From NCBI GenBank assembly GCA_000708835.1, contig DF237438.1, positions 1 through 64,000 on the forward strand: a DNA stretch of 64,000 nt. Reading direction: 5' to 3'. This document shows positions 21,101 to 48,983 of the stretch, piece by piece. The position numbers and the translations under genes are program-made. This stretch comes from Klebsormidium nitens (lineage: Eukaryota > Plantae > Klebsormidiophyceae). Below the pieces are notes generated by a model. It saw only the letters and a program-made list of their open reading frames with translations, did no database searches and had not been told where the DNA came from. The stretch's first letter is position 1, and each line of letters begins with the position of its first letter.

Positions 21101-23394
21101 GCCCTGTGCCTCGTTGGGGCAGAAGAGGGACCACTTGCCGTTCTCCTCCACGCGCTTCATGAACAGGTCGTTCACCCAGAGGCCGTAGAACAGGTCGCGC
21201 GCTCGCACCTCCTCCTTGCCGTGGTTCTTGCGCAAGTCTAGCCACTCAAAGATGTCCGCATGCCACGGTTCCAGATAAATGGCAAACGCACCTGGAGCAG
21301 GCAGCAAGAAAGTCCATGATTACATGGCTAGCACAAGTGGAAGAGAGTACTATTCAGATCTATGATGCATGCACTCCAGTCTAGAGAAAGCGGGCATCGA
21401 GCAGATACTTGGCCGCCCTTCGCGACTCAAGGAGGTGGTGAAGGCTGACGGAATTGGTAAAAAACTATTGGGGAGCCAGCAAAGATTGTCTTCAAGCTCA
21501 AAACTTCAGACCAGATTGCAGGGAAGGCAAGCCCTCCTACCTTTCCTTTTGCCGCCTCCCTGATCAACATATCTGGCAGTGTCATTGAAGACTCTGAGCA
21601 TTGGGACGATGCCATTGGATGTGCCGTTTGTGCCGCGGATGTAGCTGCTGGTGGCGCGGATGTTGTGGATGGACAGTCCGATGCCGCCTGCGCTCTTGCT
21701 GATGCCCGCACACTCCTTGAGGGTGTCGTAGATGCCCTCGATGCTGTCCTCCTTCATGCACACCAGGAAGCAGCTGCTGAGCTGCGGCCGAGGGGTGCCG
21801 GCGTTGAAGAGGGTGGGGGAGGCGTGGGTGTACCATCTGCACACCAAGTGGCGCATGCTTCTGTCAGCAGGAGCATGGGAAAGAATTGGCACACTGCTTT
21901 TGTGGGGCTTGAGCAAGAAAAAGATGGTCACAAGAAGGATGCTTCCAAACAGATCTTAACAAGAAGGATGCTTCAAAGAGATCGAGGGCAACATAGGAAA
22001 GATGGGTTGCCTGCACTTGTGTGGTGATGAGGCAAGAACTGAAGTACAAATCCATCAGTACGCAAGAAGGCAACCTGGTGAAGCACCCACCTTTCTGACA
22101 TGAGGTGGTACGTCCTGATGGCCGCCTCAATGTCCTGCTTGTGAATGCCGACAGCCACACGCATGAGCATGTGCTGCGGTCGCTCTACAACCTTGCCATT
22201 CACTTTGAGCAGGTACGAGCGCTCCAGAGTCTTGAAACCGAAGTAGTCGTACTCAAAGTCGCGGTCGTAGATGATGACGCTGTCCAGACGCTCCTTGTTC
22301 TATAGGGGGGAAAGAAGAGAATGTTTTAGGCCCCATCCGAAGGACAGTGTTGGAGGAGCTTGCATGGGGCATGAAACAAACAAGACTAGCTTGCAAGACA
22401 CGCATCTCCAGAGAAGTCCTGCAGATGATCATGACATACCTTCATGATGACCTCAAAAACGTCGTCTGCAATAAGCGGCGCTTTCAGGCCGGAACGGTTG
22501 TTGACGTGATAGTACATATCTTTGATCCTGAGGCATGAAAGAGACAAGCGGTAAGTTCACCAGTTGAGATTTGAAAGCTTGCAGCGAACGAGTCCAACCT
22601 GGGGCTCATTGCATTCAAGTGAAATACTCAGTGTGTCTGGTGGAAATCGAGCTTCATATATACTTGATAGCTGAGACAAGGCAGAACTGCATGGCTGCAA
22701 GTACCCTTTTTTGCCCAGGAAGGAAGCAGAAAACTCACGTATCTGAGAAGGACTTCTTTGTGTTCTTGTGCAAGTTGGACACAGCAATCCGCGCTGCCAG
22801 CTGCAACAATCAAAAACCACCATCAAATTCTGAGTCAACCAAAGGCATTCTGAAACTAGGTAGCATCGCCATTGATACTAGAGGTGATGAGGTTCTAGCT
22901 GTATGCTATTTCAGATCAGCAGAATTCAGAAAACACTCCACAGGAACTTCTATAGCTGCAGGGGCACGCCAAAAAGGTACAGCTGACAACAAGTTGCAGT
23001 TCACAGCTGTTGATTGCTATGAAGCAGATTTGCAAAGGCAGATGCATCGGCCTTTCAGCAACGGCACCCAACTGTGTTGGTCGCCAAAAGTAACAAGGGT
23101 GGTTTGGTACCGTAACAGATGGGCACATGAAAGCAGGGGACGCAGCAGGTGAGAGACGATCCCCACCTGTGCATAGTCCGGATGCTTTGCAGTCATGGAC
23201 GCCGCTGTCTCCGCCGCCAGCTCGTCCAGCTCGCTGGTAGTGACGCCCGTGTACACGCCGGTGGTCACCTTCTGCGCCACCAGCACCGGCTCGCAGTGCT
23301 CGGGATTCAGCCCATAGCTCAGCTTTCTGATCCTCGCAGTGATCTTGTCAAAGTGGACCGCCTCCTTGCGGCCATCACGCTTGATCACATACAT
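18181..23394 (-). CDS. RNR1: Ribonucleoside-diphosphate reductase large subunit (class Ia), multi-exon
   Basis: ATP-cone start [22 protein letters not shown], plus [49 protein letters not shown]...[36 protein letters not shown] and C-terminal CISCGS*. Confidence 0.98.
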
Positions 23395-23660
23395 CCTGAC
23401 TTGACGTGCTGAGAGAGTTAGCTAGTCCCCCTCGGCTTCCTGTTAGTCTCCTTCCTTTAACTTCGTACGTACAACTGTATGCTGAAGGTGGCTGCTTTGC
23501 TCCTCCCTAACAATTGGTCAGAAAGGTGCTCGCTGCTGGCAACCTGAGGCAATGGAAGCCCCGGAGTCTCAAATGTGAAGATTTGGAAGAATGCCTTGAA
23601 GCAATGAAGGGCGTGAGTGCTTGACCGCAACTTTTCGTGTGGCCGTGTGCAGACCGCAGT

Positions 23661-28100: not shown

Positions 28101-31054
28101 GTCATGTTATCTCAACTTGATACTGAGTGCGCTCAAATCAACATAGTGACAGTGCAAGGGCCCAGGCTGGGCGGCGCGGCTGACCGTGCGTATGAGGCCG
28201 ATGCGGTAGCGGTGCGGCAGCTCGGACATCATGCCGAAGTCCAGGTACACCAGCAGGCCGTCGCTCGTCACCAGCAGGTTGCCGGGGTGCGGGTCTGCAC
28301 AGCACGGAGGCGTATCAGACAAGAACGGAATTAAAAAGCTGCACGACACGAATTCGGGGTCTGCAACTTCGGTCTTGGGTTTAGACGGCATCAATCAGAT
28401 TACCGCTGCTTTCACTTGCGCTCTGTCGATGTTACGACCCTCTTCGAGGGTGGCAGAGGGCTGCGGGCACTGACCGGAATGGAAGAAGCCCTCCTCGAGG
28501 AGCTGGCGCAGGGAGCAGAGGACGCCGAAGTCGACGATCTTCTCCGCATTCAGCTGCAAGCCGGCGATCGCAGCCTGCCATCACAGAGCGCGCAATAGTA
28601 AAGGCACTGCTTTTGATGCTCGATGGCCACCAACTAATAAGCTCAAGTAAACGTCCCAGGTTGGTGACGTAAGACACGGCCAGGGCCCCACGTGCGACGA
28701 CGTAAGCACACGACCCGAGAGCGACAGGAACAAAAGCTCTCAGAAGATCCCGCAATTTCAGATGACCCATTGGCTGCAGAGTATTGGGGTGGGCATATGC
28801 AAAACTTCGAACTCAATCCGAGAGCCTCACCGCATCAGTGAGCTTGACGCCTTCCATCCACTCCATGGTCAGAATCTGGTGCGTCGTCATCCGCCACAGA
28901 ATTCGCGGCACACGCACCCCGCCCTCCTCTGCGCCGTTGCGCCTCCTTCCCGGGGGCGCATCCATGAGCCCGTCCCACCCCCCGTCATAGTCGCGCGCGT
29001 GCTCCGCCCCCTTGGCGGCATCAAACGCGTAGAGCTGCGCAAAGCGCTCCGCGTTGTGGGCCTCTCGCACGTAGTCGACTTCCTCAAACACGCGGCCGAC
29101 CATCTCGTCGACCACTGCAGTAAGGCTGCCCCGCGCGCCCACGTAGCGCTGCAGCTGCGCCGCCACCTGGCGCAGCAGGTACGCGTCTAACGCCAGCCGT
29201 ACCGCTAGCCCGGGGCGCTGCACCTTCACAGCCACCCATGCGCCATACGGGCCGGGCAAGCGTGCTGGCAAGGAGAGAAGGGGCAGACTGGTGGGCAGAG
29301 TTCGCTGTAATGGCAGAAGAGCACAATTGTACGCCATATTATTTTTAATTGACTTGGCCTTCGTTTAAAGGTTCTTTAGAAGATGGATGGTCTAAAGTAG
29401 CGGATGAGTTTTCAAAAAAACATATAGAGTTCTCTAAAGCGCCCTGCTATGGCAAGCCAGAATACGAGGCCCATGTTCCTAATAAGAGTTGAAAGGTCTG
29501 AGAAGTTGTGCACGCCACGTCTCCAGACGTATTACCGGTTACATGTCGAGTCAAACTAGATCGATCGCAGGGTTTGACCAACCTGACATGTGACGAAAAC
29601 GATTCCTGGAAGGCTCTGCCAGCAGTTCGCAACCAGAAACAGGGAGTTCTCAGTAGTGACAACATTCTAAAAATGCAAGTCACGTGTGTGCAATCTCGCT
29701 TAATTCACATTCACTTCGATCTCGTTTTGTAATCCAACAGGCATCAACAGCTTGAGCCACACACCGTCGAAACACCGGCGCACTCTGTTACTCCACTTCG
29801 CGTGCCCACCTTTGTAGACCTGCCCCAGCGAGGCTGCTGCAACCGGCTCGGGCGAGATCTCCTGGAACAGCTTCTCAATGGGCGCCCCCAGCTGGGCCTC
29901 GATGGCGCGGAACGCTGCGCGTGTTGGGAAGGGCGGGATCTGGTCCTGCAGCTTGGCCAGCTCCGCGCAGATTTGGGGGGGCAGCACGTCGGGGCGCGTC
30001 GACAGCGTCTGGCCCAGCTTGATGAACGCGGGGCCCAGGCGGATGAGCGCCAGCCGCAGCTGCACGGCAAGCACCGTGATAACTGAGCCTGTTCCCTCGC
30101 TGAGCAGTCTGGCTGAGTCTCAAGAACTGTTTTACTTAATTGCTACAGGCCAAAAACCAAGCTCGAAGTTGTTAGAGTGGCACCGGAAGTGACTGATCAC
30201 TTGTTGCCTTGGTACGACAGTCTGGTTACATTAGATGGATAAGAGAACGCCTACCAAAACCACCCCACATTTCAACAAAAGACGTGCGAGCACAGTGTTC
30301 TTGAGGTGCACTCTAAAAGCCACTCCTCATCATCGCCATCAATAGTGGGAATAGGCGCCCTCACCATCTCTGCCCGCTTGTTGATGTCACTTTCCCGCAG
30401 CGACCTCAGCCTGAGCCAGCCGACCTCTGCTGTGATGACCAGTGCCCGCCACAGCACCGGCAGTGGGCGCCAGCGGTAGTGCCTGGCCAGGGCACCCGGG
30501 TCGTACACCGCAGGCTTCAAACGCTGGGGGAGCTCCACCGTCTCGTCCTCTGTGAAGAAGCCGTCCTCCAATAAGAGCTCCGCCGCTGCGGGGGGGGCTG
30601 TGGTGGCAGCAGCGCCGGGAGGAGGCCGGACAGCGTCTGTTACTCTAGAGGTTGATTTTGGAGCTTGATGGGCGGTGGTGGATGTGGTGGCGGCAACTGT
30701 GGCCCCTGGGCTTCCGGTGGCAGTGTAGGAGGACCGGATCTGCCATGAGCTTGGCAGGATAAGGTCCAGCTGGCTGGAAACGCAGAGGGTGGATGCTGAA
30801 ATTGAGAATGCAGGCGGCTTGAACCACCTTGATCCTGAGAGAAGGCTCTCACTTTCGATGCCCACAGTTGAAAGAAGGGGTGTTCTTCGCCAGAGCGCCT
30901 CGCCTCCATTCAGAAGAGGAGAGACTTTAGCAACAGCTCCAAGCCCCTCCTCGCAAGCCCCAGCTTGTGCTCGTATCCACGGCAGCAGGCTCTCCCACAG
31001 GCGTGGCCGCAGGAGCAAGCGGGACCGGCTGCTAGGAGGACCTGCTGCATTCAT
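25109..31054 (-). CDS. ABC1/AarF atypical kinase, probably plastid-targeted (ABC1K4-like from memory), multi-exon
   Basis: LGPAFIKLGQTLSTRPD, PVAAASLGQVYK, VAVKVQRPG, EEVDYVREAHNAERF, LTMEWMEG, FFHS|DPHPGNL, YLDFGMM and VIRALGSLEGTATALDPSFKVLASAYPFVVGRLLADPTPE. The N-terminus is long and Ser/Arg/Ala-rich. Confidence 0.93.
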
Positions 31055-31599
31055 GGTGATTCGCTAGCACGAGCTACCAGAAGTGAGGATCACGACAGTA
31101 CCGCTTGGAAATTATCCCATCTTAGCATGGTGCCAGCATGCATGCACCTTGCAACAGCTGGCGCTGCTGCCCGCCCTCAGGGACAACAAGATGCCCACTT
31201 CAGAGTTGAAGTTAATACTCACCACCCTTCTCTGGCGTTTTTGTCCTTATCAAGCGGTGCGCCCTTCAAGGACAACCAGTTCGAACAATCGCAGTAGGCT
31301 CTACCCCACTTCACATTTGGCGTCCAAGTCCCATTCAATGCAGCCTAGCGCCCTGGGCTCACACTCACAGCTTTGGCTGTCTAGAATATTACATGTCACT
31401 GCGCCTCCTTCCCTGACCATCTGTTGATACAGCATAAACACAACCACTCTCCTGCCGCCACGTGCCCCCCTTTTCCGCTTGGAAGGCTTTGTCTCCGCAA
31501 CCTGGTCGCCTCAGGCTCGCCGGCTCCGGGGCCCGGGGGATACCCCGAACCGCGAAAAGGCTTCCGGAACTGAAAAAGCTCTGCATGCAGTCACTAGGC

Positions 31600-31853
31600 G
31601 GTTCACGTATCAGCAGTGGTTCACCACAGCGTTGCTGGGCGTTCCTCACCCGGGGATTCGGCGGTGTGAGTGCGGTAAGGAGTTGCCGGAGTGGATTGGG
31701 GCGGAGCATACCGTACGCTGTTCCCCGAGGTACAAAGCGCGCACGCTGACGCGTGATGGCATATGCAGTGCGCTGTACTTCATCCTGCGAGACTCGGGTG
31801 TTCAGCATCCGCCGGAAGGCGAGGGGCATCCTTGCCGGCCGGTGAGAGACTGA
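31600..31853 (+). mobile_element. Possible relic of a CRE-like (RLE-type) non-LTR retrotransposon zinc-knuckle region
   Basis: WFTTALLGVPHPGIRRCECGKELPEWIGAEHTVRCSPRYKARTLTRDGICSALYFIL has a C-x-C-x11-H-x3-C knuckle preceded by LG-x-P, as in CRE-clade elements. The usual downstream RH is degenerate and no RT is visible. Confidence 0.4.
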
Positions 31854-32573
31854 GAGACGGAGGGGAGACTCGGAGAGTGATGGATGCTGATGTTCTAGCA
31901 TCGCCGGATTAGCTTGCACACCTTATTCAAATGGACTGTGGCGGACGTAGACGGGCATGATGCAGGAGTGTTGCCCAGGCTTTGCGCGTGCGTTCTAAGC
32001 GATCGTACGTGTCCAAAGCCTACCCTTCATAGTAGAGAAGGAGATATTGACCAGCCACACGTGCATGCAGGCCGGCAAAAGATTTGCATGGTCGTTATCA
32101 GACCTTTTGAGTTAACTTAATTACACATCGTTGTCTTGAGCAGACAATAGCAGCATCGAGTAAAGGTCCGCATATAACATGAGGTCGATCGGCTTCTCGC
32201 GCTCGTAATATTCAAGCAATGTCATCCAATACAATCGCATTTTTTTGGAACCTTTGAGACCCCACTCAAAAGCGTGATTGTGGAAAGTCTTCATGGGAAA
32301 GCACACGACTGTATGCTGCGAATCCCGGGCTTCACTCAAGCACTCAGGCATTATGTACCACCAAGACATGCATACACCAGAGACTTGGTTCTCGGTAATT
32401 CAGCATGGCCGATGTCTAGAGACATTAATGTTGCTGAAAGAGCAACAGAGGAAGAAAATTGAGCTACACAAGCTTGAGCCCCTGCTGAGGCGTCGGTCCT
32501 CCACATTCGACTAAAATTCTGCCACGTCTCTTGCACGATTCACTTCTATCTGGACACGTTGCACGATCTACTT

Positions 32574-35500
32574 CTATCTGGACAAGTCGTCAGACAAGTC
32601 ATCATCGGACAACTCTTTGTCAGGCAACACTAACATATTTTCGGGGATTCGCAGAACCTCGTCCCCCGCATCAGGCAGCTTCAGGCGAACCACCCATTGT
32701 TTGATGCTCTTCAGCTCGGGAGGGACCTCGTTCTCTGGAAGAGCGCCTTTTGTCATGACCATCTCCCCATCCACACCTTTTTTTTTGGGACCGGTCCACG
32801 GCTGCCAACCATAGTTATCAAACTTCTCTCCTGGAACCGCAAGGACTACTCGAAGCTGCTTTCTACCGATGCGTTTCAGAAGGTCCAGAATCCCTTGCGC
32901 GCTGATCCCATGCCCGGGGTTGCGCGTGAACTGGACAGCATATATCCAATCGCCACCGGGGCAGAGTAGCCCATCCCACGACTCTTGATCTCTTGTGGTT
33001 GGCCGGAGGTACGTGTGCTTCAGATCCGCCGGATTCATCCCCTCCTCCTTGCTGTCGGACACAAAATCCTTGCAGCTCCGGAACGCCTCCTTGATCTCTT
33101 CAACCGCTTCCTCCCGCTTTTCCGACTGACCCGGGTCATTCTCGGACACCTCCCCGCCCTGTCTCGCTCCCTCCTGCTTCCGAGGCCGGCCGCGCCGCTT
33201 TCGGAACACCTCCTTGATGTCGTCGTCGTCCAGGTCTACGCCCAGGACGCACCTCACATGCCCGTACGCCTCCAATGAGGACCCTGACATCTCGCCGACC
33301 CTCGGGTTGCTGGCAGCCGCGTGCAGCAGGTCCACTAGGTCCTGCCACCGGCCCTCCTTGGCTTTTTGAAAGACGAGGTCCCCGATGCGCGGCGAACCAA
33401 GACGGAACCCATCAAACTCCAGATCTTTCGTCGCCTACATGGACAGATGGAAAAGGAGGTCAAGCGCTAGTTGTCCCTCTGCAAGTGAGTGGATGCCATT
33501 GTATACATGCTGGAGACCTAAGAGAGCCAGGCACTGCATGCCACCCAAGGTAAAAGACACGAGCAGAACGAAGACCGAGCCGAATTCTGAATGGTCGGCT
33601 ATCAGTCGACCCTCCTTTGCCTCAAGCTAACTCACTTCAATGTGCGCAAATGCATGCCGTATGGCGCTCTTCAAAGCTGCTGCGCCAAGGCGATACAGGT
33701 CCACCGCCTCCAAAGCTGAGAGTGACCTCGCAAGACGCTCAAACGATCGGCCGGGGTCTGCCAGGACGCTCCTGACGACCCCGCCAAACTGCTCAAAGCG
33801 ATTCTCCGTCTGCTTTTGTGACATATGAGGGTAGAAGCGCTGCCGGCACTCCAGCAACTCATCGAGCGTCCACACAGGGAGCCACCAGACTTCAGCGTGC
33901 CTGCGACGTCGATCCATATTGTGAGCAGGTCACAGAAGCAAAGTGCCTGCTGTGGCAAGAGCGAGGGGTCAGACGGGGTGGAAGTCTGTCTACGCCCGAT
34001 GACTTATTGAGGAAGACGCAAGTGTAGGACAGCGAAAGGCCAAACAATCAGAAACCTGAGAGGATTCAGAGACACCCTGCCAGGACTGCAACGTCGAAGA
34101 TATACAGCCACAATTCAATTGACCCATAACAGAACAGCATCGGATGAAGAAACGAGCCGCGAGGGAACTAAGATTTGCGCAATTCGAGCTCAGGCAAGAA
34201 CCAAGGACTTTGGCCACTTTGAGGTCCATGATCACTCCAACCATGAAGAAGTTAACTTTGGAGGTCTGTTGACAATGGTCCGAATACTTACTTCCCCTTG
34301 ACAAACTCCATGTAATTGTCAGAATTGGGCGAGCACAGTACCACCCAGCGACCGTAGCCCGGGAACTGCGTTTCACGGGGAGCCCGTCCATCTTGTACTA
34401 GCCAGACAGAAGGGCGCTCGCAGAGGTCTGCAACACAAGAGAGGATAATCATTGCTGGTGAGCATGAGTAGAGCCCTGTCACTTCCCGCTTTATTATAGC
34501 CCAAACCAAGAGAGAGTGCGCCTTCTAAGGTGAATATACTGTCGCCCTGACTTCCTGGGGGAAACATGCTCACACTGAGCATCCACCAACATATAACCTT
34601 CGCAATTGTTTGAAGCCGGAAGCCAAGCATACACCTTTGCTGCCAAACAATGGTTTCACAGTGCAACATGTCAAACTGTTCGCTTACCTTGAATGGATTG
34701 CCAGTAAGCAGTGCCTTCAGAAGCCTTTTTGACAGTGATCGCCGACGGATTGGAGAAATCGAAGAAAAGTATGGTGTCCTTTCTGATCCTATCCATGTAC
34801 CTGCGAGGCAGACTGATAGGGTTGGCACAGAAGAAGGAAGCACGTGGTCCCTCGTCGTGGAAGGCCTTGTTAGAAGGAAGGCGCTCAGCAACACACGCTA
34901 GCAGGCGACTACAAGGCGACTACAAAGTCAGCCAGGACTGGTGTATGCACACCTGTATGCCACTTGTGCCCCCTGCTTTGCCAACCGGTGCAGGAGGAGG
35001 ACAGCAAAGGCAGACTTTCCGATGCCCGGGGTGCCACTCAGGATGACCGCAAAGTTGTTCCCAAGAATCTCGAGCTTCTTCAGCACCGTGCGATAGCACT
35101 CCCGGATGACAATGCTATCCCTCAGGCCTGGCGGCAGTCCCTCCCGAAGCTTGGGNNNNNNNNNNNNNNNNNNNNGATCATTGCTGGTGAGTATGAGTAG
35201 AGCCCTGTCACTTCCCGCTTTATTATAGCTCAAACCAAGAGAGAGTGCGCCTCCTAAGGTGAATATACCGTCACCCTGACTTCCTAGGGGAAACATGTTC
35301 ACACTGAGCATCCACCGACATATAACCTTCGCAATTGTTTGAAGCCGGAAGCCAAGCATACACCTTTGCTGCCAAACAATGGTTTCAAAGTGCAACATGT
35401 CAAACTGTTCGCTTACCTTGAATGGATTGCCAGTAAGCAGTGCCTTCAGAAGCCTTCTTGACATTGATCGCCAGCGGATTGGAGAAATCGAAGAAAAGTA

Positions 35501-37179
35501 TGGTGTCCTTTCTGATCGTATCCATGTACCTGCGAGGCAGACTGATAGGGTTGGCACAGGAGAAGGAAGCACGTGGTCCCTCGTCAGGGAAGGCCTTGTT
35601 AGAAGGAAGGCGCTCAGCAACACACGCTAGCAGGCGACTACAAGGCGACTACAAAGTCAGCCAGGACTGGTGTATGCACACCTGTATGCCACTTGTGCCC
35701 CCTGCTTTGCCAACCGGTGCAGGAGGAGGACAGCAAAGGCGGACTTTCCGATGCCCGGGGTGCCACTCAGGATGACCGCAAAGTTGTTCCCAAGAACCTC
35801 GAGCTTCTTCAGCACCGTGCGATAGCACTCCCGGATGACAATGCTATCCCTCAGGCCTGGCGGCAGTCCCTCCCGAAGCTCAGGCGGAATCTGGATGACT
35901 CCACTGGCAGTGTCCGCTTGCGCAATGAATTCAGCGTACTTCTGGAGCCTCTCTGGAACAAAAAGCAAATCAACAGTGTGGTGGGGGCTGACTACCGGCA
36001 GATCAGACACTTCCGCTCGGATGCAAGAAAATTCACACCAGCCTCCCACGAAGCGAATCGCCTTTGTGGTGGGCACTGCCCAGTGGCAGAACCTGAGTTG
36101 TGCCAATGCAGGAACTCTACACCAGTCAAACAGCACCTGAAACAGCAATCAAATAGAAGACAATGCTGACAGGTGCGACAAGCGCTTCAGCACACAGCGC
36201 AAACAGGTGGAAACAGGTACAGAGACTTACCCAAGACTGCAGGGTCTGGAACCCCCGCCGCTGCACACGACAGAAGCTATCTGTCAGCATTCCACACGCA
36301 GTCACTGAATAAGCCAACTGCATATGCTAAGCAGGCTATGAGGTTGGAAATAGTTTCTCTGCACCGCAAAACTGTTCCGCCTGCATGTTGCCATGACCCA
36401 CAGAGCAACCCACCAACCTCAGGCAAACACAGATACAAACACCCTTCTTAAGCAGCAACAATCGAGACAGATTGCCATGGCTCATTGAGCAGACACCTGA
36501 ACTGCAGGCAAAGAGGGATAGAAAACCCTCTGTGCGGTGTGCCATACCACTCTCTTTGCGAAACATCGACAAGCAGCAGGGGAATTGCCTGCAGCACAAC
36601 ATTGGCAGCAGAACGCCTCTCATGGTCTTTTCACATCTGTGCGCTGCTTTGCTGGGCTGCTCCAAGGAGACCGCCCTCCATGCGTAAGACGACGGGAGAC
36701 GTACCTGGTGTCTGCTGCAGCTTCAACTTTTCCACCTCCGCCTGCGCGAGCGCGGTCAGTCGCTGCTCCAGCGCGACCAGTCTTTGCTCCAACAACTCCG
36801 TGCTCTTGCCTGCAGCCGCAGCAGTGTCGATCTGGTTCTCCAAGCGTTCAATTCTCTTCTCCGCACGCTGGATACTCGACTTGAGGGCCTGTGCCTCTTC
36901 CTTGACCCGGTCAGCCTGAGGTGCACTATCAAGTCCGTTGGAACTTCCGGTAGACTCTGCTTGCCCCTGGGGAATTTTCGCCCTCGGCAAGAAGCTTCTC
37001 AGTCCTGAGCCCACGCTGTACTCGGAATGGGACCTGCCCAGCCTCGATCCCTCAACCAGAGGGCGAGGAAGTGTCCTCAAAGGGAACAGCTGGGGAGTGA
37101 CAGGGGCAATGTCTGCCTGCCTGCGCGAAAATAAAGCTCTCGCCCCAGCCACCTGGAAGAGCACTGCGGCAGACGCCAT
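32574..37179 (-). CDS. Crinkler/RHS-type effector: transit-peptide-like N-terminus, coiled coil, P-loop NTPase, PD-(D/E)xK-like REase with AT-hook
   Basis: Exons 37179-36705, 35952-35682, 35529-35417 (second copy of exon 2, partial, 35155-34953, and of exon 3, 34800-34688), 34427-34292, 33900-33636 and 33434-32574. All have GT-AG boundaries with matching phases, giving 706 aa when one exon copy is used. Walker A LSGTPGIGKS; Walker-B-like VWLVQDG; VVLCSP; LPVWTLDEL; RFEQFGGVVRSVL. REase-like G..LEAYGH, YLRP...ESWDGL, AVQFT...H.I and VVLAVP. Confidence 0.8.
34447..35879. repeat. Direct duplication of about 700 bp (period 729 bp) covering two exons of the Crinkler-like gene
   Basis: ~34447-35155 and ~35176-35879 align end to end with about 19-20 substitutions counted by eye (~97% identity). 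The copies are separated by 20 N. Confidence 0.92.
35156..35175. other. Assembly gap (20 N)
   Basis: Run of N between the two duplicated copies; the true length is unknown. Confidence 0.99.
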
Positions 37180-37562
37180 TAACCTCACCAGTGACGTCCC
37201 GCAGAAACCAGTGGATGCGGCGCCTGAGCCATTCCAACCTGCCACAGCCCTCGCACTCGACTTCGATCACGGTGTTGGTTGAAGAGCCCAGATTTTAGTC
37301 CGAACTTCATTTGGCTTGCTGAATGATCACGGCGATTCTTACCCCATTATCGCTTTGATCTGGTTACACTTCGGGTTAGATGATAGAGTCGGTGAAGACG
37401 AGCTGGCTGTCGCCCAGGCGAAGGCCCAGGCCCAGGCCGAGGGCCTACAGACGTGCTACAGACGCTGTGCATTCGAAGTCAGCTGGGAATATGTGCATGG
37501 CGGCGTGCCTGTCCCCGCCTGCCTCACACCGCTGCCAGCTAGTCCTGAGAGGTGATACCTGA

Positions 37563-40168
37563 ATGGTGCCCTCGCTTCAGGCCAGCCCCGCCGCAGCGGA
37601 CGAGGATCTGAAGCTGTCCGTCTCAGAGCAAAATCTGTTGCGCAATGCTGACCCCCAGCGAGCAGACTCAGAGCGCACCCCATGGTGGACCGGCCTCGTT
37701 CTGTGCTCTGCCATCCTCGCAGTCTCCAGCGCCGCTGCTGCCTTTAAGTACATCGAAGGAGCAGCCCCCATCACGAGGGCGGGATGGAGGCTGCAGGTGG
37801 GGGGCCGACTGTTGGGAGCTACAACCCTCTGAACTGCCCATGTTATGAGAAATTCTTGCTGACAGTGCTGCAGCTTTTGTGCCCTACCCGCCTGCATCCG
37901 TTGGTCCTTAAGTCCCCTTAGCCCCCCTTGCTGCATGACTCAGTTGCTGTTGCTGTGTGGCAGGTGACCACCCTGGCGGTGAGCCCCCTTGCGTATGCTC
38001 AGTGGCGCACGCTGGCCCCCGAGCTGCGGCGGCGTGCGGGGCAGCCTGCCACGCTGGGGCTGCTGGCGCTGTCGGGGGCGTGCCTGGCGGTCCACTTTGG
38101 CACCTGGGTCTACAGCATTGATCACACCAGTGAGCAACGGCTGCCCACCTTGGCAGACTCTTGTGCTTTGCTCTCAGTCTGGGAATATTTGCTTCAGCCC
38201 CAATACTTAGCAGCTCAAGATGCGCCAGCGATATCATACACTAAAATGTCTGGCAGACATTTTAGTCTGCCAGACATTAGTCTGGATGCCTGTGACATGA
38301 TGCACAACATGTGGTGGCGGTGTTCTTTCCCCTGCCCGTCTTCAGGCCGTCTTCATCTTCTTGGTTGATGTTGTTCCTGAGCCTTAAGCTGGCTCTGCCG
38401 TCTCTTTTGCCAGGCCTGCCCCACTCGCTGCTCCTGGTGTGCTCCAGTCCACTGGTCCTCGCGGTTGCGTACTGCCTCACTTGCCGGCCCATCTCGTGGG
38501 GGGAGATCGGTGGGGTGGCCCTGGGCACGGGGGGCGCAGCCCTGCTGGCGCTGTCAGCCAAGAGCGACCGGGATGTGACTGTGCAGGGGGACGTGGCCGC
38601 GGTCCTGGCTGCGGCAGCCTTCTGTGGCTACATCACGTGTGGGAAGAGCCTGCGAGGTGCGCGTCTTGTTTTGTTCCCTGTCATTTTGGGGCCGTGCCAG
38701 AATCAATCTACTGCCACAGGACCACAGTATTCCTACGTAGCCACAGTAGAGTCTTGACTCTGTCACCTTACTTCACTAGACTTGACTACCCTCTGAAATT
38801 CTGATGACCTATACTGTGAACTTCGAAATTGACTGAACAGGCCCGGCCTTTCGAGGCCTTTCGAGGAACTGCAGAAGGCCGGCCTGTGCTTTTCGCCTTC
38901 CTTTACGTGTCCTTTTGACCCCGTTTCATCTGCTCCCTTGCAGACTGGCTCCCTTTGTTTTGCTACTCCTTCCCAGTCTCCCTAGTAGCCGCGCTGCTCC
39001 TGGCATCTGCTGGCATGGTGCTGGAAGGGTCGGGCGGCCTGGTGGACAACCGGCTGACGGGGCCCTTCTCCTTTGTGACCCACTCGGCGTACCTGCTCCC
39101 AGTGCTGTACCTCGCACTGGGGCCCGGCATCGTGAGTGGGCCACCCGCAGCATGTCGCAAAGTTTTGCAGGGATCCTATCTCATAATGCTGTTCTTTTAC
39201 GAGCAACATTTTCCAGACACTGTTCTGACCTCAAAGGTGAATTTTTGGTTGAGGGATGCCATTTGCCTGTAACACTGCTCTGGCCTTTTTCTATAAAACG
39301 TGTTTGCTCCAATTGCCCGATTCCCACGTCTTTCGCTCTTGGTTGTCAGGTGGGCCATGCCGGCCTGAACGCGGTGCTGCGGTACATGAGTCCGCTGTCG
39401 CTCAGCCTGGCGGTCTGCGTGGAGCCGCTGCTGGGCAGCCTGCTCGGCTGGGGGCTGCAGGTGTCGGCACTGCCAAGGTAAGCCCGCTTTGGGCCATGCG
39501 CCCAAGAACACGGAAGTTCTTTCCAATCTTTGAATGAAATCCCGGATATTGTTTGGTCAATTCTGTGGGGTCTGGGACGTGATTTGAACTGGTACTAACT
39601 TTTCATGCCACCAGTCCGTAGTCAAGCTAACTGGGTCGTACAAAAGTCTGGCATGTGGCGTTCTTGCGAAGCACGCGTTCCTGCCTGCTTGCCAGAATAT
39701 TCACTTGGGCGGGCGGGGTGCTGCTGATCGTGGCGACCATCGTCACTCAAATGGCTAGCCAGCAGCGGCTGGAATTGGCCAAAAGGCGGCCCGGGGGTAC
39801 CGAGCTGGTGAGAAGTCGTTGAAAGCTTTGCACTTTACGGTCTGATTCTCTTCCAAGTGTCGACGGCCTGGTTTTTGCCTGTCCTTGCTCGTCGGGTCCT
39901 GCTGATGAGACGTATGAGACTGTCTGCCTTATGAGCCCGTTCAAGTCGAGGGAGTCGTTGATGTCATTACTATGATTGATATTGTGCAAAGACTGATTGT
40001 GCCACTGCCTTCCGCCATTGTTGCCAGGTCCTCCTTCCGCTATCCGCCCCGGACGACGTTTTGGAGGGAACGGAGGAGAAACTGTTATTTGAGGGGGAGG
40101 GGCTGGCCGCGCAGCGAGATAGGCGGGAACGGGAGGCGCTGCTGGAGGAGGGTGCCGCACTGAAGTGA
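37563..40168 (+). CDS. EamA/DMT-superfamily membrane transporter, multi-exon
   Basis: About ten hydrophobic segments. Motifs AGWRLQ, ALSGACLAVHFGTWVYSIDHTS, GDVAAVLAAAAFCGY and GHAGLNAVLRYMSPLSLSLAVCVEPLLGSLLGW. The probable last exon is VLLPLSAPDD...EGAALK* (40028-40168). The start codon is uncertain. Confidence 0.85.
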
Positions 40169-41222
40169 TTAGTAAGGGGCTTTTTTCTTCGATCGTGAAG
40201 AATCAGTCAGATACATGTCCGGAATCGAAAAAGGATGCCGCTGGTTGAAAGCGCCGGTCCAAAGCTTTCAGTCCTTTGCTCTTTGCGGTTAGAAAGCTGG
40301 GGAGACAGGGTCTCCCCATAGATGGGGCGAAACGAGATCAAGTTGTGGAAACCAAAGACTTGGAGGTACAGCATTCAAGGACAACCATATGCGCCGTGGC
40401 ACGCGAAAAAGAGTTGTTTTGACATTGATGTATCGAGTAACTTATTATGAGCGCCGCATCACGATTGTGAGGCCTTATCGGTGCTGGTACGCGCACAGGG
40501 TTCAACGGTTGCCAGTATGAGGAGTCCGCCGCTATATTGTCGAGACTTAGGACGAATTGAAGGAATCTTGCATGAGCGGTCTAGGCGCATCTTAATTCCA
40601 TGATTCACTGAGCTGTGCGTATGATTGCAGATTTGGGGACCTGCGAGCGCAACCTGCGCGTCTAGCTGCAGGCTCACTCGTATAATGCGCCGCTGATTAG
40701 CTTCATGCATGCATCGACTAGTCCTCAACTTCACATCGCTGACCGCCACGCGGTCACTATATATTTGCCTGATCGATTGTCACTGCATGATCGACTGAAG
40801 CTGGGGTGCGTGTCAGTGTAAAATTTAGTCCATGACACTCACGTTGACATGTGCATGAAGATGCAGATGACGACCCATGCATGGTGACCCGATGGGGTTC
40901 TTTTCTTAAGCGCTCAATGCCAGAACCCTCAATTCATGTTTCATGTACGCACATATGCACGTTGCAACCAACTTTCCAGGGCCAAGCTAAACCCGGCGAA
41001 TACGCAACGAGTCGCAGGAGACAGCTGCGGAAGGTCATCGCCCATCTTTTCAGCGTAAGCGAGATGAGCATGGTGAAGACCAGATCGGCACGCCGCAGCC
41101 ATTAAAAATCGACGGCCTGCTAACGCATGCAGACAAAACAACAAAATTGTTGCAAGAGCGAGTTGGTTCTACCAAGCAGACTCGGTTTCGCAGATATTTT
41201 GTCCGCAGCAATCATCCTCGTT

Positions 41223-43484: not shown

Positions 43485-45631
43485 TTAACCTAGAGGTAGC
43501 AGGCCCTCCTCAATCAACCTGGTCAACTCTTCCGAAAATCTGCAGCGAGACCCACAAGTAGAATGAAATCTAATATGCAGCAAAGATATCAAACACTGAT
43601 TTGGCATGCTTTGCGCTAAATCCGCTAAGGTAACTACCAGTTCTGAGGGAGACAGTTTACGCAGGAGATAACTTCGGATATGCAAAGACCGCGGCTGGCT
43701 GCTGAAGCATGTGAAAAGCCCTGATACTTTTCAGTCGGCCTGTAGATACCAGGTGAGGCTTTGAGGGGTGGTGCGTACCTGCAGAGGGGGAAGCCCATCA
43801 CCGTGAAATAGTCCCCCTGCAGCCGGCGCACCAGGCAGCCCCCCAGGCTCTGGATGCCGTACGCGCCCGCCTGCAGTCACGGGAGACCCCACATAACACG
43901 AAAGTACTTTTTAAAAGTAATGTCGATACTGCCCAAACAAGAATGTCAACGTCTCAACAACCAAGCGGCTGTGCTTATAGCAACAAAGTACTACAACTTG
44001 GCGGCCAGGTTGTTGCCACCACATCACTCCTGTTTTAAGGAGGGAATGTAAGTGACGCACTGGCATGAAAGTGTGATTGGTTCCACTTTGCTCGGCGCTC
44101 GCACCTTGTCGAGGGAATCCCCCGTTGCGACGTATGCGTCGATGGTGGCCTCCTGCAGCGGGGCAAACTCGACCTGGGTGGTCTCAGAGAAGGTGCGTAC
44201 CAGGGGGCCAGAACCACCTGCTGGGTCTGAGGGAGAAAAAGAAACATGATGTCAGAGGGCCACACACCACCTTACAGACAGGTGCTTAGAGGAGCTCTTG
44301 ACTGCTGCATTGATGAGACTATAGCGCACGCATTGGATTGGTGGTGATACAGCCGGTGTGAGATGCAACAGCTCTGACGTGATTGGGGATTGTTGATCTG
44401 GTTTGAAACACTGTGTAGTGATTTTTGGGGGAGCTTAGTAAGCTACAGTCAGTGCCCGGCGCAACAAATGAAGACGGCTCACCTTGCACTTTGGGCAGAA
44501 GAAGCACCACCCCCGTATGCACCGAGTGCCACTCGCCTGCAAGGGAGCGAACACCAATTAGAACAGACGACTCACACCTGCAATGCACGCTTCTCCAGGC
44601 CAATGCTTTTAGAGCAAGTGAACGCTCCTTGCCAGCGTTCATCGATTCAAAGGTTGTCCTTTCTTACAGGCGGTCAAGACCGGGGGAACTGGTCATAAAA
44701 TGTTGCCCGTGTTAGAATTGCACTCTTCTGCCCCTGTGCTGCTTAGAAGGCTCACCGCTGAGGCGCGTGAGGAACTCCTTTGCCTGGGCTGCGTCACGGG
44801 GCTTCTCCAAAATCACCCCACCGTGCTCTACCACAGTGTCCGCGCCAATCACCAAGTCCGGCTGCGCACCACCCTGCACAACACAACTAAGATGAGCATC
44901 CCGTGCGGTTACATTGAGAGTACGAGGCTCACAGAACCACCAGCAAAAGAATCTTTTAGAGCATTGTCTAAGAAGATAGTGATTTGGGTTTTCTGGGCCT
45001 GCTGCCAAGGAACAATGGCAAAAACCAAATTGTAGGCCTTGTACGAATGCGTACGAGAAAATTGGACGACTTGCAGTCTTACCTCTGAGGCGCACCTGAG
45101 CGCCACCTCAATTGCCTTGTGGGTGGCAGTCTCGATGGCGTACAGCGCCGCAGTTTTGAAGCTGCTCTTGTCCAATTGCTCCTCAAAAGTGGACGCGATG
45201 CACTGGATGGTAAGGCCCTGCATAAGAACAGTAGGCTGTCTCAGACTAATTTGCAGCATGGCTTTGACAAACCCTGTCAGTTCTCAATTCCAATATGGCA
45301 TTGAGTTTCAGGCGCCATGCCTGTGCAGAAGGCTTTGCTGAATTCAGTAGTCTGCGCCAAAAATTGACTGTGAGTCAACAGGACGGCAATGCAATGCTGG
45401 CATTATCAAGCATTGAATCTAAGCAAATCCGAACATCTTATCCACATGGCTCCAGAGAGTTTCCCTACATTTGACAGCAATGCTCCACTAACCATCACGA
45501 CACACGCAAGAATCAGAGGTGGTTGAAAGGCAGCCCACCAGTCCCTGCAGCAGCTCTTTCCTACGCGGGCTTTGTGACCCCAAGATGATGCGCTTCTGGG
45601 AATTGAGCTTGGCAATGTGTTGGAGCACCAT
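43485..45631 (-). CDS. maf: Maf/YhdE-family nucleoside-triphosphate pyrophosphatase, multi-exon
   Basis: RIILGSQSPRRKELL, STFEEQLDK, KAIEVA, LVIGADTVVEHGGVILEKP, LAGEWHSVHTGV and DK|AGAYGIQ...GDYFTVMGFPL. Confidence 0.92.
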
Positions 45632-46077: not shown

Positions 46078-48983
46078 ATGGGGAACTCACATCGGTCTCC
46101 TCCGAAGGAGGATTGGGTTTTTGAAGAAGATGACCTGGTGGGTGACCTTACTCGGGGGCACGGCGCTGACCTGTTTGCCCCACGAAGCTCGGACGCGTCC
46201 TCACTCCACATGGGGGCTGTAAAAGCAGGCCAGGAAGGCGCATCTGACAGCTGTGGAACCCCGGGGCTGCAGAGGGAGGGGCAACTAGACGAGTGCGACG
46301 CTTCTTGCCCCAAAGACCAGCTGGAAAAAGTGAGCGTCGAGGATGAAAGGAAGATGGGAGGGGAGCAGGCTTCTACTTCAGGACGGGACAATGCGTTTGC
46401 AGCTGCAGCAGACGTTTTGCTGAGGGGGGAGTGTGTTGTTGCTTTTACTGGAGCGGGGATTTCAGTCGAATCAGGTAAGAGGCTTTTGCTTGAGAAAGCG
46501 TTGCGAAACATTTTGCAATGGGGAACGTCGTTATCACTTCCGCCCAGCTTGGCCCCAAAAGCACAGTCGCGATGTGCCTCGTTTGTGAATTATAGCGCGA
46601 AGCAGGTGGAGCTGGTGCTGCATAGTTCGGCAGGTTGATGTAACATGGGGGACGAAAGTCTCTGACTGATACCAGAAGAAGTTGCTCCGAAATCTGTTCT
46701 GATGTTCCATCCTCCAACACTGGCAGCTTCTATGCTTTCTTGCTGACTATGCCTTCTCTGGAGGGAACTTCCAATTGGATTTTTTACTTAGTCACACTTC
46801 TAATGTCACGTCTAAGTTCAGCGCTTTGTCGCGTCCAGGTATCCCAGACTTCCGGAGCCCAAGCGGGTTGTGGGCAAGGTTCGATCCGGGTCTTTATTGC
46901 AGTTATCCAGCTTTCATTGAGAGGTGATGGTCGCAGAAGCCCCACAGACCCAAAAATGGCTTGGTGGCAGACATCTTCAATTCTAAGCTGGCAAGTGCGG
47001 AGAGTTTCGAGAACCATGGTGATTGCGTGCACTGGATTGAGAAACGGCACGTTTCAAAGCACTAGACATCTGCTTGAAGATGACGAAACAGACCACCACA
47101 TCCACCCTCGCTCTTGAAATTGTTGTAATCCCAGTGAACAGTGAAGGGAAGGAGTGTGTGAAGTTCATGTTGCAATGATTGTTGAACGACCTTGTCGGGG
47201 TGTCTGAGAAACACTTTCTGCATGGTCACAGTAGTTCCTGGGAAGTTCCACAGGCCACGTTGAGTGTTTGTTTCGCTGTAGTGAGATGCCTCTGCGCTAT
47301 CCGTAGGCCAGAGTTGTTTTGGACGATGGCGCTCGAGATGCAGTGGTTGACGGGCGATGCGGAGCCCAACCGCGGGCACGCAGCCCTGGTCCAGCTGGAG
47401 CAGCTGGCGGGGCTCCGCTGCGTGGTCACACAAAACGTGGATGGCCTGCACCAGGTAAACGGGAGCAATCTTTAACATTCTTTCAAAAGAGGAGCCGAAT
47501 CAGTGAAAGGAAATAAAACATTGGTCCAAAGCACCAAGAGACCAGTGGTCAAGAGTATCTGCTTTGAAAGTATGGCAATGGCCAAAAGGGAGGAGCCTCC
47601 TGACAGTTGCTAGGCTTCATAGCTGCCCTTGCGTTCTGTTACGGGTCTGGCGATTCCCGGGAGGATTGTCCTTCATGTCCCTGCCATATTCGAAACATCC
47701 TCGACAATTGTCTTTTACAATGAGATCCATTCCAGTCAATTGTGCCGACCTAAGGTTTGGGTCATCCGTTCTTCTGATTATCCAGAAACTTTGCAGGAAC
47801 TTCCAATCGGATAAGCCCGTGTCACAGCGCGCCCTTGCCTTGCGTCTTGCAATCCTGGCTGAGCTCCCCTCCCCCCGCCGCCTGGTGCAGCGCGCCGGCT
47901 CCGCTGCGGTCCACGAGCTGCACGGCACAGTGTGCACCATGACTTGTGTGGCGTGCAAGAAGAAGCGCTCCGTCTGGCGGGAGATGGAACGGCTCCGCTC
48001 GCTGAATAAAAAGCAGGTATGGGGCGGCATTGCGCACTCTGCTTTTGGGGGAACCTTCGGATAAAAGTCCACAACAAGGGCGGCCTCGATCCTAACTCTT
48101 AGGCTGGCCAGGAAACCCACGTGTGTGAAGGCATTGAATGTTGCGCTTTTGGCTGTCGATGCTGGTTAACGAGGCACCCTGCGATTACTCTCCTTCTGTT
48201 TGTGCATGGCCATTCGCACATGAGCCCAAACTCTCGCCAGAGGGCAGCATCAAGGCGCACTTCGCTTTCCGCTTTTTTTTCCAAGGATCGGTCCTGACAG
48301 TTACGTTCTTCTGCGCAGCTCGAGCCTGCCGACGTGCCGCGCTGCCATCGCTGTGCCGGCGCCATGAAGATGGACGTGGTCTTGTTCGGTGAGGCGCTGC
48401 AGTACGCGGTGCTGCAGGAGGCCATGCGGGCCGCCACCGCAGCTGACGTCATCCTGGTCGTTGGCACCAGCCTCTCGGTGAGTGCACATAGTAGTGCTGA
48501 CGTGTACGCGTAGCTATTGCGGGCTTGACGGTATGGCATGGTTGCGCCCAAAAATGTGATCCTTCTGAGCCGTTTGGCTCGATATTGAGTAACAATGTTA
48601 CTTTCAGAAAGTTGGAAGCTGTTGTCTCTTGGAGCGCCATGTGCTGATGATTGGTAACACTCCGATTATTTTTGAAGCATCGTTTCAGGTCCTCTCATTG
48701 TTCTCAGGTCGCTCCCGCAAACAGCCTGGTGCAGCAGTGCAAGGCGCGCGGTGGCCAAGTCATCGTGTGCAATCTAGACGACTCGGGGCAAGAATACGCG
48801 GACATTGTTTTGCAAGGGAATGCCTCAGACACGCTCGAAAGACTGGTAGCGGCTTGCACCCAGAAGCTCGATGAAAAGCGACTGGGATTGGAAGCACTCA
48901 TCAACGAGAATCGGCAGTTGCCCGCTCCAAGTGAAAGGACGCTTGCGTTGGATCGAGCCCTCTCTGTTGGCAGCCTTCTATGA
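46078..48983 (+). CDS. Sir2-family NAD-dependent deacylase resembling prokaryotic class U/III sirtuins, multi-exon
   Basis: FTGAGISVES|GIPDFRSPSGLWARFDP, EPNRGHAAL, VVTQNVDGLHQ|RAGS..VHELHGT, zinc pairs CVAC and CHRC, DVVLFGEAL, VVGTSLS|VAPANSL and IVCNLD. Confidence 0.93.

Follow-up and report, generated by a model that had tools for sequence, protein, structure and literature searches.

A transcribed and spliced Klebsormidium nitens gene that joins a coiled coil and an NTPase resembling those of RHS and Crinkler proteins to a predicted restriction-endonuclease-like domain

The window considered here is a 64,000-nucleotide stretch of Klebsormidium nitens DNA (assembly GCA_000708835.1, contig DF237438.1, positions 1 to 64,000 of the forward strand). 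Between positions 32574 and 37179, it harbors a minus-strand gene that appears to be an ordinary, expressed variant within the known class of Crinkler- and retrotransposon hot spot (RHS)-type proteins, in which a nucleoside triphosphatase (NTPase) is paired with a restriction endonuclease (REase); this class has already been reported from free-living eukaryotes. Under the splice model, seven joined exons form one open frame of 2151 nt, corresponding to 716 codons and a single terminal stop (Table 1). The start codon at 37179 is the first ATG in its open frame, and all six introns are of the GT-AG type, with the donors GTACGT, GTAAGT, GTGTGC, GTAAGC, GTAAGT, and GTGAGT.

The original prediction had assembled an intact, spliced, and stop-free gene from minus-strand open reading frame (ORF) fragments, and this is borne out by the open frame, the GT-AG sites, and the spliced contigs described below. 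Every motif quoted in it (GTPGIGKS, VWLVQDG, LPVWTLDEL, RFEQFGGVVRSVL, LEAYGH, SWD, and VQFT) is present in the spliced product. Its version with six exons and 706 residues is in frame and represents the same model, but it omits the 30-nt exon 2 that annotated paralogs contain. Inclusion of this microexon, giving 716 rather than 706 residues, is the best model as judged from the paralog gene models. At the other end of the gene, a 28-nt tandem duplicate (32531-32586, 89% identical) extends across the stop codon into the beginning of the 3′ untranslated region.

Table 1. Positions in the window of the exons, the assembly defect within the gene, and the neighboring genes
Feature	Position	Strand	Description	Basis
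Exon 1	36705..37179	-	Ala/Arg/Ser-rich N-terminus (aa 1-85), then coiled coil (~aa 86-158)	Splice model; paralogs share the MASAAVL start
Exon 2	36231..36260	-	In-frame 30-nt microexon with GT-AG sites	Peptide found in the three closest annotated paralogs
Exon 3	35682..35952	-	Start of the NTPase; Walker A GTPGIGKS at 35741-35764 (aa 232-239)	Splice model; nSTAND3, 27.6 bits over Walker A
Exon 4, copy 1 (above the gap)	35417..35529	-	3 amino acids different from copy 2	Splice model
Exon 5	34292..34427	-	Walker B-like VWLVQDG at 34387-34407 (aa 304-310); VVLCSPN strand	Splice model and joint 34427/34688
Exon 6	33636..33900	-	LPVWTLDEL, RFEQFGGVVRSVL, helical region past the NTPase	Splice model and joint 33434/33636; loose ends 33900, 34291
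Exon 7	32574..33434	-	C-terminal domain of 286 aa and stop; predicted restriction-endonuclease-like fold; AT-hook-like insert; acidic tail	Model and alignment
Assembly gap, 20 N	35156..35175		Only N run in the window; lies within the gene	
Copy 2 of the 704-bp duplicate	34448..35151	-	Part of exon 3 (34953-35151), intron 3, exon 4 (34688-34800), part of intron 4	97.3% identical to 35177-35880
Ribonucleotide reductase large subunit	20204-23421	-	5 ORFs, several exons	Pfam
ABC1 atypical kinase	28110-30119	-	3 ORFs, several exons	Pfam
Maf-like	44715-45107	-	1 ORF, several exons	Pfam
SIR2-family	47179-48061	+	2 ORFs, several exons	Pfam

Splicing was followed in contigs from runs X1, X2, X3, and X7, which stem from four studies and were placed on the window at 98% likeness. 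None of these runs is recorded as RNA, so that their RNA nature is a guess, and the spliced joints together with 29-42 million letters fit transcriptomes. The joint 34427/34688, at which 260 bases with CT..AC ends on the plus strand are skipped, and the joint 34800/34953 are found in all four runs, and the joint 33434/33636 is found in two. Loose contig ends at 33900 (four of four runs) and 34291 (one run) spell the adjoining exon and fit a junction 33900/34292; the 18 letters at the loose end 33900 contain one mismatch to exon 5 of the window, possibly from a paralog. These four 3′ junctions are confirmed as real, and the gene is transcribed and spliced in its 3′ half. For the junctions of the original prediction, the outcome thus covers the 3′ half, in which the exons are joined in contigs of the four runs.

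Words sampled from 32400-34440 occur in many more data sets: 16 of the 23 listed runs contain at least half of them, and the best run reaches a fraction of 0.69, which is approximately the exonic share of the stretch. Depth lies in the hundreds in exon bins and at 4-75 in intron bins, a pattern that fits spliced RNA with some unspliced precursor, or a little DNA in the libraries. Low-depth contigs from the same runs as the exons also lie over introns 6 (33452-33643) and 5 (33932-34315).

The assembly gap inside the gene is flanked by two 704-bp copies (34448-35151 and 35177-35880), which have a spacing of 729 bp and both end at the gap. The 19 differences between them are distributed over exon 3 (2/199), intron 3 (3/152), exon 4 (5/113), and intron 4 (9/240). 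Because both copies terminate at the gap, they are probably the ends of two contigs from a single region that the assembly failed to merge, and reads from paralogs may be the cause. If so, the gene would look 729 bp longer than it really is. Transcripts carry the copy-2 exon 4, since the joints 34800/34953 and 34688/34427 are both seen in them.

The RNA contigs carry variant letters, which probably come from paralogs. Such letters, along with the gap and the near-identical duplicate and with the mosaic identity to paralogs described below, would be expected of a pseudogene or of an assembly chimera of paralogs that has no product of its own. However, the 716-codon frame stays open under either copy of exon 4, and at the 98% threshold several contigs agree with the window at every letter over exon 5, the copy-2 exon 4, and exon 7; a pseudogene or chimera is scarcely credible.

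Closest to the gene product are five K. nitens proteins that are annotated as "hypothetical" (52-93% identity), and the gene belongs, by sequence, to a small Klebsormidium multigene family. With exon 7 as the query, three K. nitens hypothetical proteins (727, 734, and 660 aa) are matched at 91-93% identity, and the three closest paralogs, which lie on different contigs, align to the spliced model from the first to the last residue at 86-93% identity. Two further paralogs, KFL_003970120 (635 aa) and KFL_005680050 (638 aa), were obtained from cluster look-ups. The starting residues MASAAVL are shared by four of the five annotated paralogs, P0031 being the one that does not have them. A 100% match to the window product was not returned among the annotated relatives; therefore, the gene is most likely a paralog that lacks an annotation or carries a different one. 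The expectation that automated gene calling would probably miss such a gene proved wrong for the family, as five paralogs are publicly annotated.

Identity to the paralogs is mosaic along the protein. Over the NTPase, P0003 shows the highest identity (94%); over the N-terminus and the coiled coil, it is P0002 (84% and 92%, respectively), and over the REase core, P0001 (96%). This pattern suggests gene conversion among the copies or mixing during assembly. In the C-terminal core, approximately 69 residues are missing from P0003, whereas P0009 diverges and ends early; the two copies may be in decay, or their gene models may be wrong. Since the paralogs are recent and mosaic, a role in genetic conflict (either defense against foreign DNA or a selfish past) is suggested rather than a housekeeping one.

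Relatives outside this family are few. A search of proteins with the family profile (alignment A2) returned only four K. nitens proteins, and when 1.84 billion cluster representatives were scanned in full with HMMER, only 27 matched at E ≤0.001, 10 of them at ≤1e-10 and seven at ≤1e-30. The remaining relatives of the C-terminal domain are ORFs of 84-434 aa on short metagenome contigs. In five of these (P0007, P0013, P0015, P0020, and P0025 in alignment A1), residues such as LQ stand just ahead of the aligned start. These ORFs would be terminal exons read through a ...CAG acceptor, which hints that a phase-0 intron ahead of the C-terminal domain is conserved in other algae. A protein search with the C-terminal profile A1 restricted to 761-2170 aa found none, the length band being unsuitable. 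Related loci sought in metagenome (A3, A4), viral (A4, A2), and genome contigs (A2) gave pattern matches, none of them tblastn-confirmed, and this pattern-limited outcome is weak evidence of absence.

The central part of the protein has the general hallmarks of a P-loop NTPase, as Walker A GTPGIGKS and the Walker B-like VWLVQDG are intact in the window protein and in all five paralogs. The trypanosome RHS family TIGR01631 is the top NCBIfam match in each of the five paralogs, with E values of 1.4e-7 (closest paralog), 4.2e-7, 8.1e-5, 3e-6, and 0.017. The match extends over approximately 145 residues, from Walker A to past LPVWTLDEL, and covers profile positions 279-429 of 761; the exon 3 piece of the window alone matches at E 0.15. 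The Pfam family RHSP matches four of the five paralogs (E 0.0022-0.02) at profile positions 1-127 or 1-146 of 312. In the ESM Atlas, residues 190-470 are nearest to clusters of Basidiomycota, Oomycota, and RHS-bearing Euglenozoa at 0.97, and for both halves of the protein the oomycete and Euglenozoa/RHS clusters are nearest (0.96-0.97); these are leads only, and oomycete proteins gave no match at the sequence level. The NTPase is supported as RHS/Crinkler-like by similarity that is significant but remains below the curated thresholds.

Pfam offers a different name for the same region. nSTAND3 (PF20720) is the best Pfam match in all five paralogs, with a best E of 3.6e-6, and on the exon 3 piece of the window its score of 27.6 bits exceeds the cut-off of 27.2. 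NPHP3_N and AAA_16 also match weakly, and the N-terminal nuclease of Avs3 and LmuA appear among the structural matches of the C-terminal domain discussed below. The protein might on these grounds be a STAND/NLR-like immune switch, in which a coiled coil and a STAND NTPase oligomerize on an invader and deploy a nuclease-like effector, as in bacterial Avs. However, the nSTAND3 profile aligns at no more than 38-46 of its 155 positions, which correspond to Walker A and the helix after it; no other part of the STAND module was detected, and the nSTAND3 label carried by the paralogs in databases derives solely from the Walker A region. Beyond the NTPase there is neither a repeat domain nor a sensor domain, the best PADLOC match (E 0.0068) falls on the coiled coil, and the longer RHS matches fit better than STAND. 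An immune switch of this kind is considered very unlikely.

By sequence, the window protein finds only coiled-coil and generic P-loop matches in the PDB. Exon 1 gives only weak matches to coiled-coil families in Pfam, and a helix at residues 88-161 is the sole confident part of the full-length model of a paralog. In the same low-confidence model, which has a predicted local distance difference test score (pLDDT) of 38.3, helices are predicted at residues 376-500, between the NTPase and the REase-like domain. A helix-turn-helix (HTH) family was not matched in the Pfam scan of the paralogs. Residues 1-85 (36925-37179) resemble an organelle presequence, with seven basic and three acidic residues among the first 60.

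A Crinkler header is absent among the Pfam matches of exon 1 and of the full paralogs at E up to 10, a range in which the HMMER filters drop most matches above E ~0.1. A secreted or delivered effector was rejected because no Crinkler-type header or secretion signal was found; for the same reason, the protein is taken not to be delivered to another cell.

The C-terminal domain is encoded by exon 7. An AlphaFold model of this exon built with 15 relatives has a pLDDT of 76.9 and a predicted template modeling score (pTM) of 0.73. Its predicted elements, in exon-7 numbering, are a helix at 44-64, strands at 141-145, 155-158, and 163-169, a helix at 179-189, and a strand at 193-201. The top rows of a Foldseek comparison with the PDB are OkrAI (E 0.03), McrC, Bax1, Nt.BspD6I, Hjc, and Can2. 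A VIA search of 48,161 chains placed Cfr10I (Z 5.3, root-mean-square deviation 4.3, 149 residues aligned), McrC (5.2), and Bse634I (5.0) highest, with two chains at Z ≥5 and endonucleases in 11 of the top 12 rows. Rescoring of the Foldseek list gave Z values of 5.9 for LmuA, 5.2 for SgrAI, 5.1 for HerA-DUF, and 5.0 for McrC, and the restriction-fold neighbors overall lie between 3.5 and 5.9. The searches supply names only, and we take the matched nucleases, such as OkrAI, McrC, and Cfr10I, to share the PD-(D/E)xK fold. Because the list of structural matches is consistent, a restriction-endonuclease-like fold of the C-terminal domain is supported by the model, although the scores do not prove it. 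No match to this model at E ≤0.001 was found in the viral structure library.

Conservation over 16 sequences singles out a polar site. In exon-7 numbering, to which 430 is added to obtain protein numbering, the conserved residues are E55 (15/16), H59 (16/16), Y142 (16/16), W153 and D154 (15/16 each), Q168 (16/16), T170 (16/16), H175 (14/16), and R188 (15/16). In the protein, the site consists of E485/H489, D584, and Q598-x-T600. Helix 1 carries E55 and H59, the second core strand begins with D154, and Q168-x-T170 occupies the place expected for (D/E)xK; these placements at canonical positions are derived from the order of secondary structure elements, not from a residue-level superposition. 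A disordered insert of the domain contains KRRGRPRKQ (33174-33200, aa 509-517), a motif that resembles an AT-hook and also a nuclear localization signal. Motifs of this type are kept in the Klebsormidium-type relatives P0004 (RGRPRK), P0005, and P0007 (both GRP) and are not found in distant relatives.

Several known systems share parts of this architecture. The C-termini of the oomycete Crinkler (CRN) effectors combine an NTPase, an HTH, and an REase, as defined by Zhang et al. 2016 and relayed in a review (PMC5289972), in which the REase is held to be toxic, with the NTPase as its regulator. The Klebsormidium protein resembles CRN in its predicted domain order, in which a P-loop NTPase is followed by a helical region and a restriction-endonuclease-like domain. 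In contrast to CRN, it has a coiled coil instead of a header and Q-x-T instead of (D/E)xK. From free-living eukaryotes, a selfish gene of Crinkler-like type is described in a 2026 paper (PMC12957317). No literature linking Klebsormidium with Crinkler or the retrotransposon hot spot was found, and the supplements of Zhang et al. 2016 may list the family.

The trypanosome RHS proteins (TIGR01631; Pfam RHSP, PF07999) share with the window protein the P-loop NTPase, for which they are the best family match, and both are multicopy and recently diversified. However, the N- and C-terminal regions of RHS are unmatched, only approximately 150 of the 761 profile positions are covered, and the full-length TIGR01631 profile is not matched. 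Moreover, the Klebsormidium gene is interrupted by spliceosomal introns, and its product has a coiled-coil N-terminus as well as an AT-hook-like insert. The coiled coil, the AT-hook-like insert, and the Q-x-T site are, at the level of sequence, the features that appear to distinguish the gene within its class.

Taken together, the protein is proposed to consist of a coiled coil, an RHS/Crinkler-type NTPase, and an REase-like domain, and to be likely an NTP-switched protein that binds and possibly cuts DNA in the alga's own cells; this reading is held with about even confidence. The coiled coil would pair, bundle, or oligomerize the protein, and the RHS-like NTPase would act as a nucleotide switch or motor such that NTP binding or hydrolysis controls the C-terminal domain. 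The restriction-like domain and the AT-hook-like RGRP would engage DNA. Cleavage could occur via a non-canonical E/H-D-Q-T center and is just as likely to be absent.

A number of results weigh against this proposal. The TIGR01631 scores of 13-30 bits (best 30.1) lie far from the cut-off of 89.75, the RHSP scores of 15-18 bits are below 25, and the nSTAND3 score of the paralogs (26.4 bits) is below 27.2. Thus, the Crinkler/RHS NTPase of the original prediction stands insofar as TIGR01631 is the top NCBIfam match throughout the paralogs, and falls short in that every score is below its curated cut-off. The full-length model of paralog P0001, built with five sequences, does not show the NTPase fold or the HTH. 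The C-terminal 286 residues match no Pfam or NCBIfam family, and none of the 16 C-terminal relatives matches TIGR01631 in NCBIfam. Foldseek gave no PDB match to the exon 7 model at E ≤0.001, and neither structural comparison gave a match at Z ≥8; values below this can reflect a common arrangement of elements. The REase-fold domain of the original prediction is therefore retained in that the AlphaFold model lies nearest to restriction-fold nucleases, with the qualification that Z is at most 5.9 and the Foldseek E is 0.03. Finally, the (D/E)xK position is Q-x-T in all 16 relatives with no lysine conserved, so that the catalytic D...(D/E)-x-K signature is missing. Because of this replacement, nuclease activity of the C-terminal domain is doubtful, and the nuclease toxin proposed at the outset is not established; a protein that binds DNA and serves in conflict or in chromatin is the likelier product.

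The invariant Q-x-T also underlies another interpretation, in which the protein is a non-catalytic chromatin or transcription factor and its REase-like domain an inactive DNA-binding module acting on the alga's own chromatin. The AT-hook-like motif and the standing of RHS as the best family match agree with it, and in T. brucei the RHS proteins are located mainly in the nucleus, DNA is bound by RHS6, and RHS is required for RNA polymerase II transcription (PMC6393297). However, strict conservation of the polar site E/H...D...Q-x-T suggests chemistry over mere binding. A small, recently duplicated, and mosaic family with two copies damaged in the REase core would be unusual for a core transcription factor, and a family with 27 matches among 1.84 billion representatives is rare. 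A non-catalytic chromatin or transcription factor is rated as unlikely.

The NTP-switched DNA-binding protein preferred here also invites comparison with bacterial NTPase-coupled nucleases, in which a nuclease-like domain is likewise under NTPase control. McrC of McrBC, Lamassu LmuA, HerA-DUF, and SgrAI/Cfr10I/Bse634I are the best structural neighbors of the C-terminal domain, with Z values of 5.0-5.9 over 120-155 aligned residues. In contrast to this structural resemblance, sequence identity to the bacterial restriction-fold nucleases is 7-10%, Z remains <8, and the partner NTPases are of different classes. No sequence homology to bacterial NTPase-coupled nucleases was found in PADLOC or the PDB. 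It would be a decidedly bold step, and one that is unlikely to be correct, to view the gene as part of a family of NTP-gated DNA nucleases that act against invaders inside the cells of Klebsormidium and related green algae, with a new E/H...D...Q-x-T active site, diversified by gene conversion among paralogs, and forming a streptophyte-lineage counterpart of the McrBC/Lamassu/Avs logic.

If the protein is active, it would represent a plant-lineage Crinkler/RHS NTPase-plus-nuclease module that works inside the cell instead of being delivered by a pathogen, with an unusual catalytic center and an AT-hook, and a streptophyte alga that is free-living could then be used to help test the "transposons to toxins" idea. 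At present, the analysis adds an unannotated paralog to the family, flags an assembly defect within the gene, and shows the basis of the nSTAND3 label.

NTPase and REase pairs are viewed as derived from prokaryotic transposable elements, as the review PMC5289972 reports, and several paralogs with 86-93% identity lie on different contigs; both would be in line with a mobile element, active now or until recently, that carries the gene and spreads copies. However, a search of 29000-41000 yielded neither terminal inverted repeats nor long terminal repeats, and no transposase, integrase, or reverse transcriptase was found among the 114 ORFs of at least 90 aa between 20 and 50 kb at E 1e-4. Six spliceosomal introns interrupt the gene, and it occurs only once in the 64-kb window. 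A transposon reading was rejected because there are no bracketing repeats and no transposase-type ORF, and the link to a domesticated selfish element drawn in the original prediction finds no such features flanking the gene; carriage by a mobile element is thus regarded as highly improbable. The neighbors are ordinary genes (Table 1), and 11 of the 114 ORFs match Pfam at E ≤1e-4.

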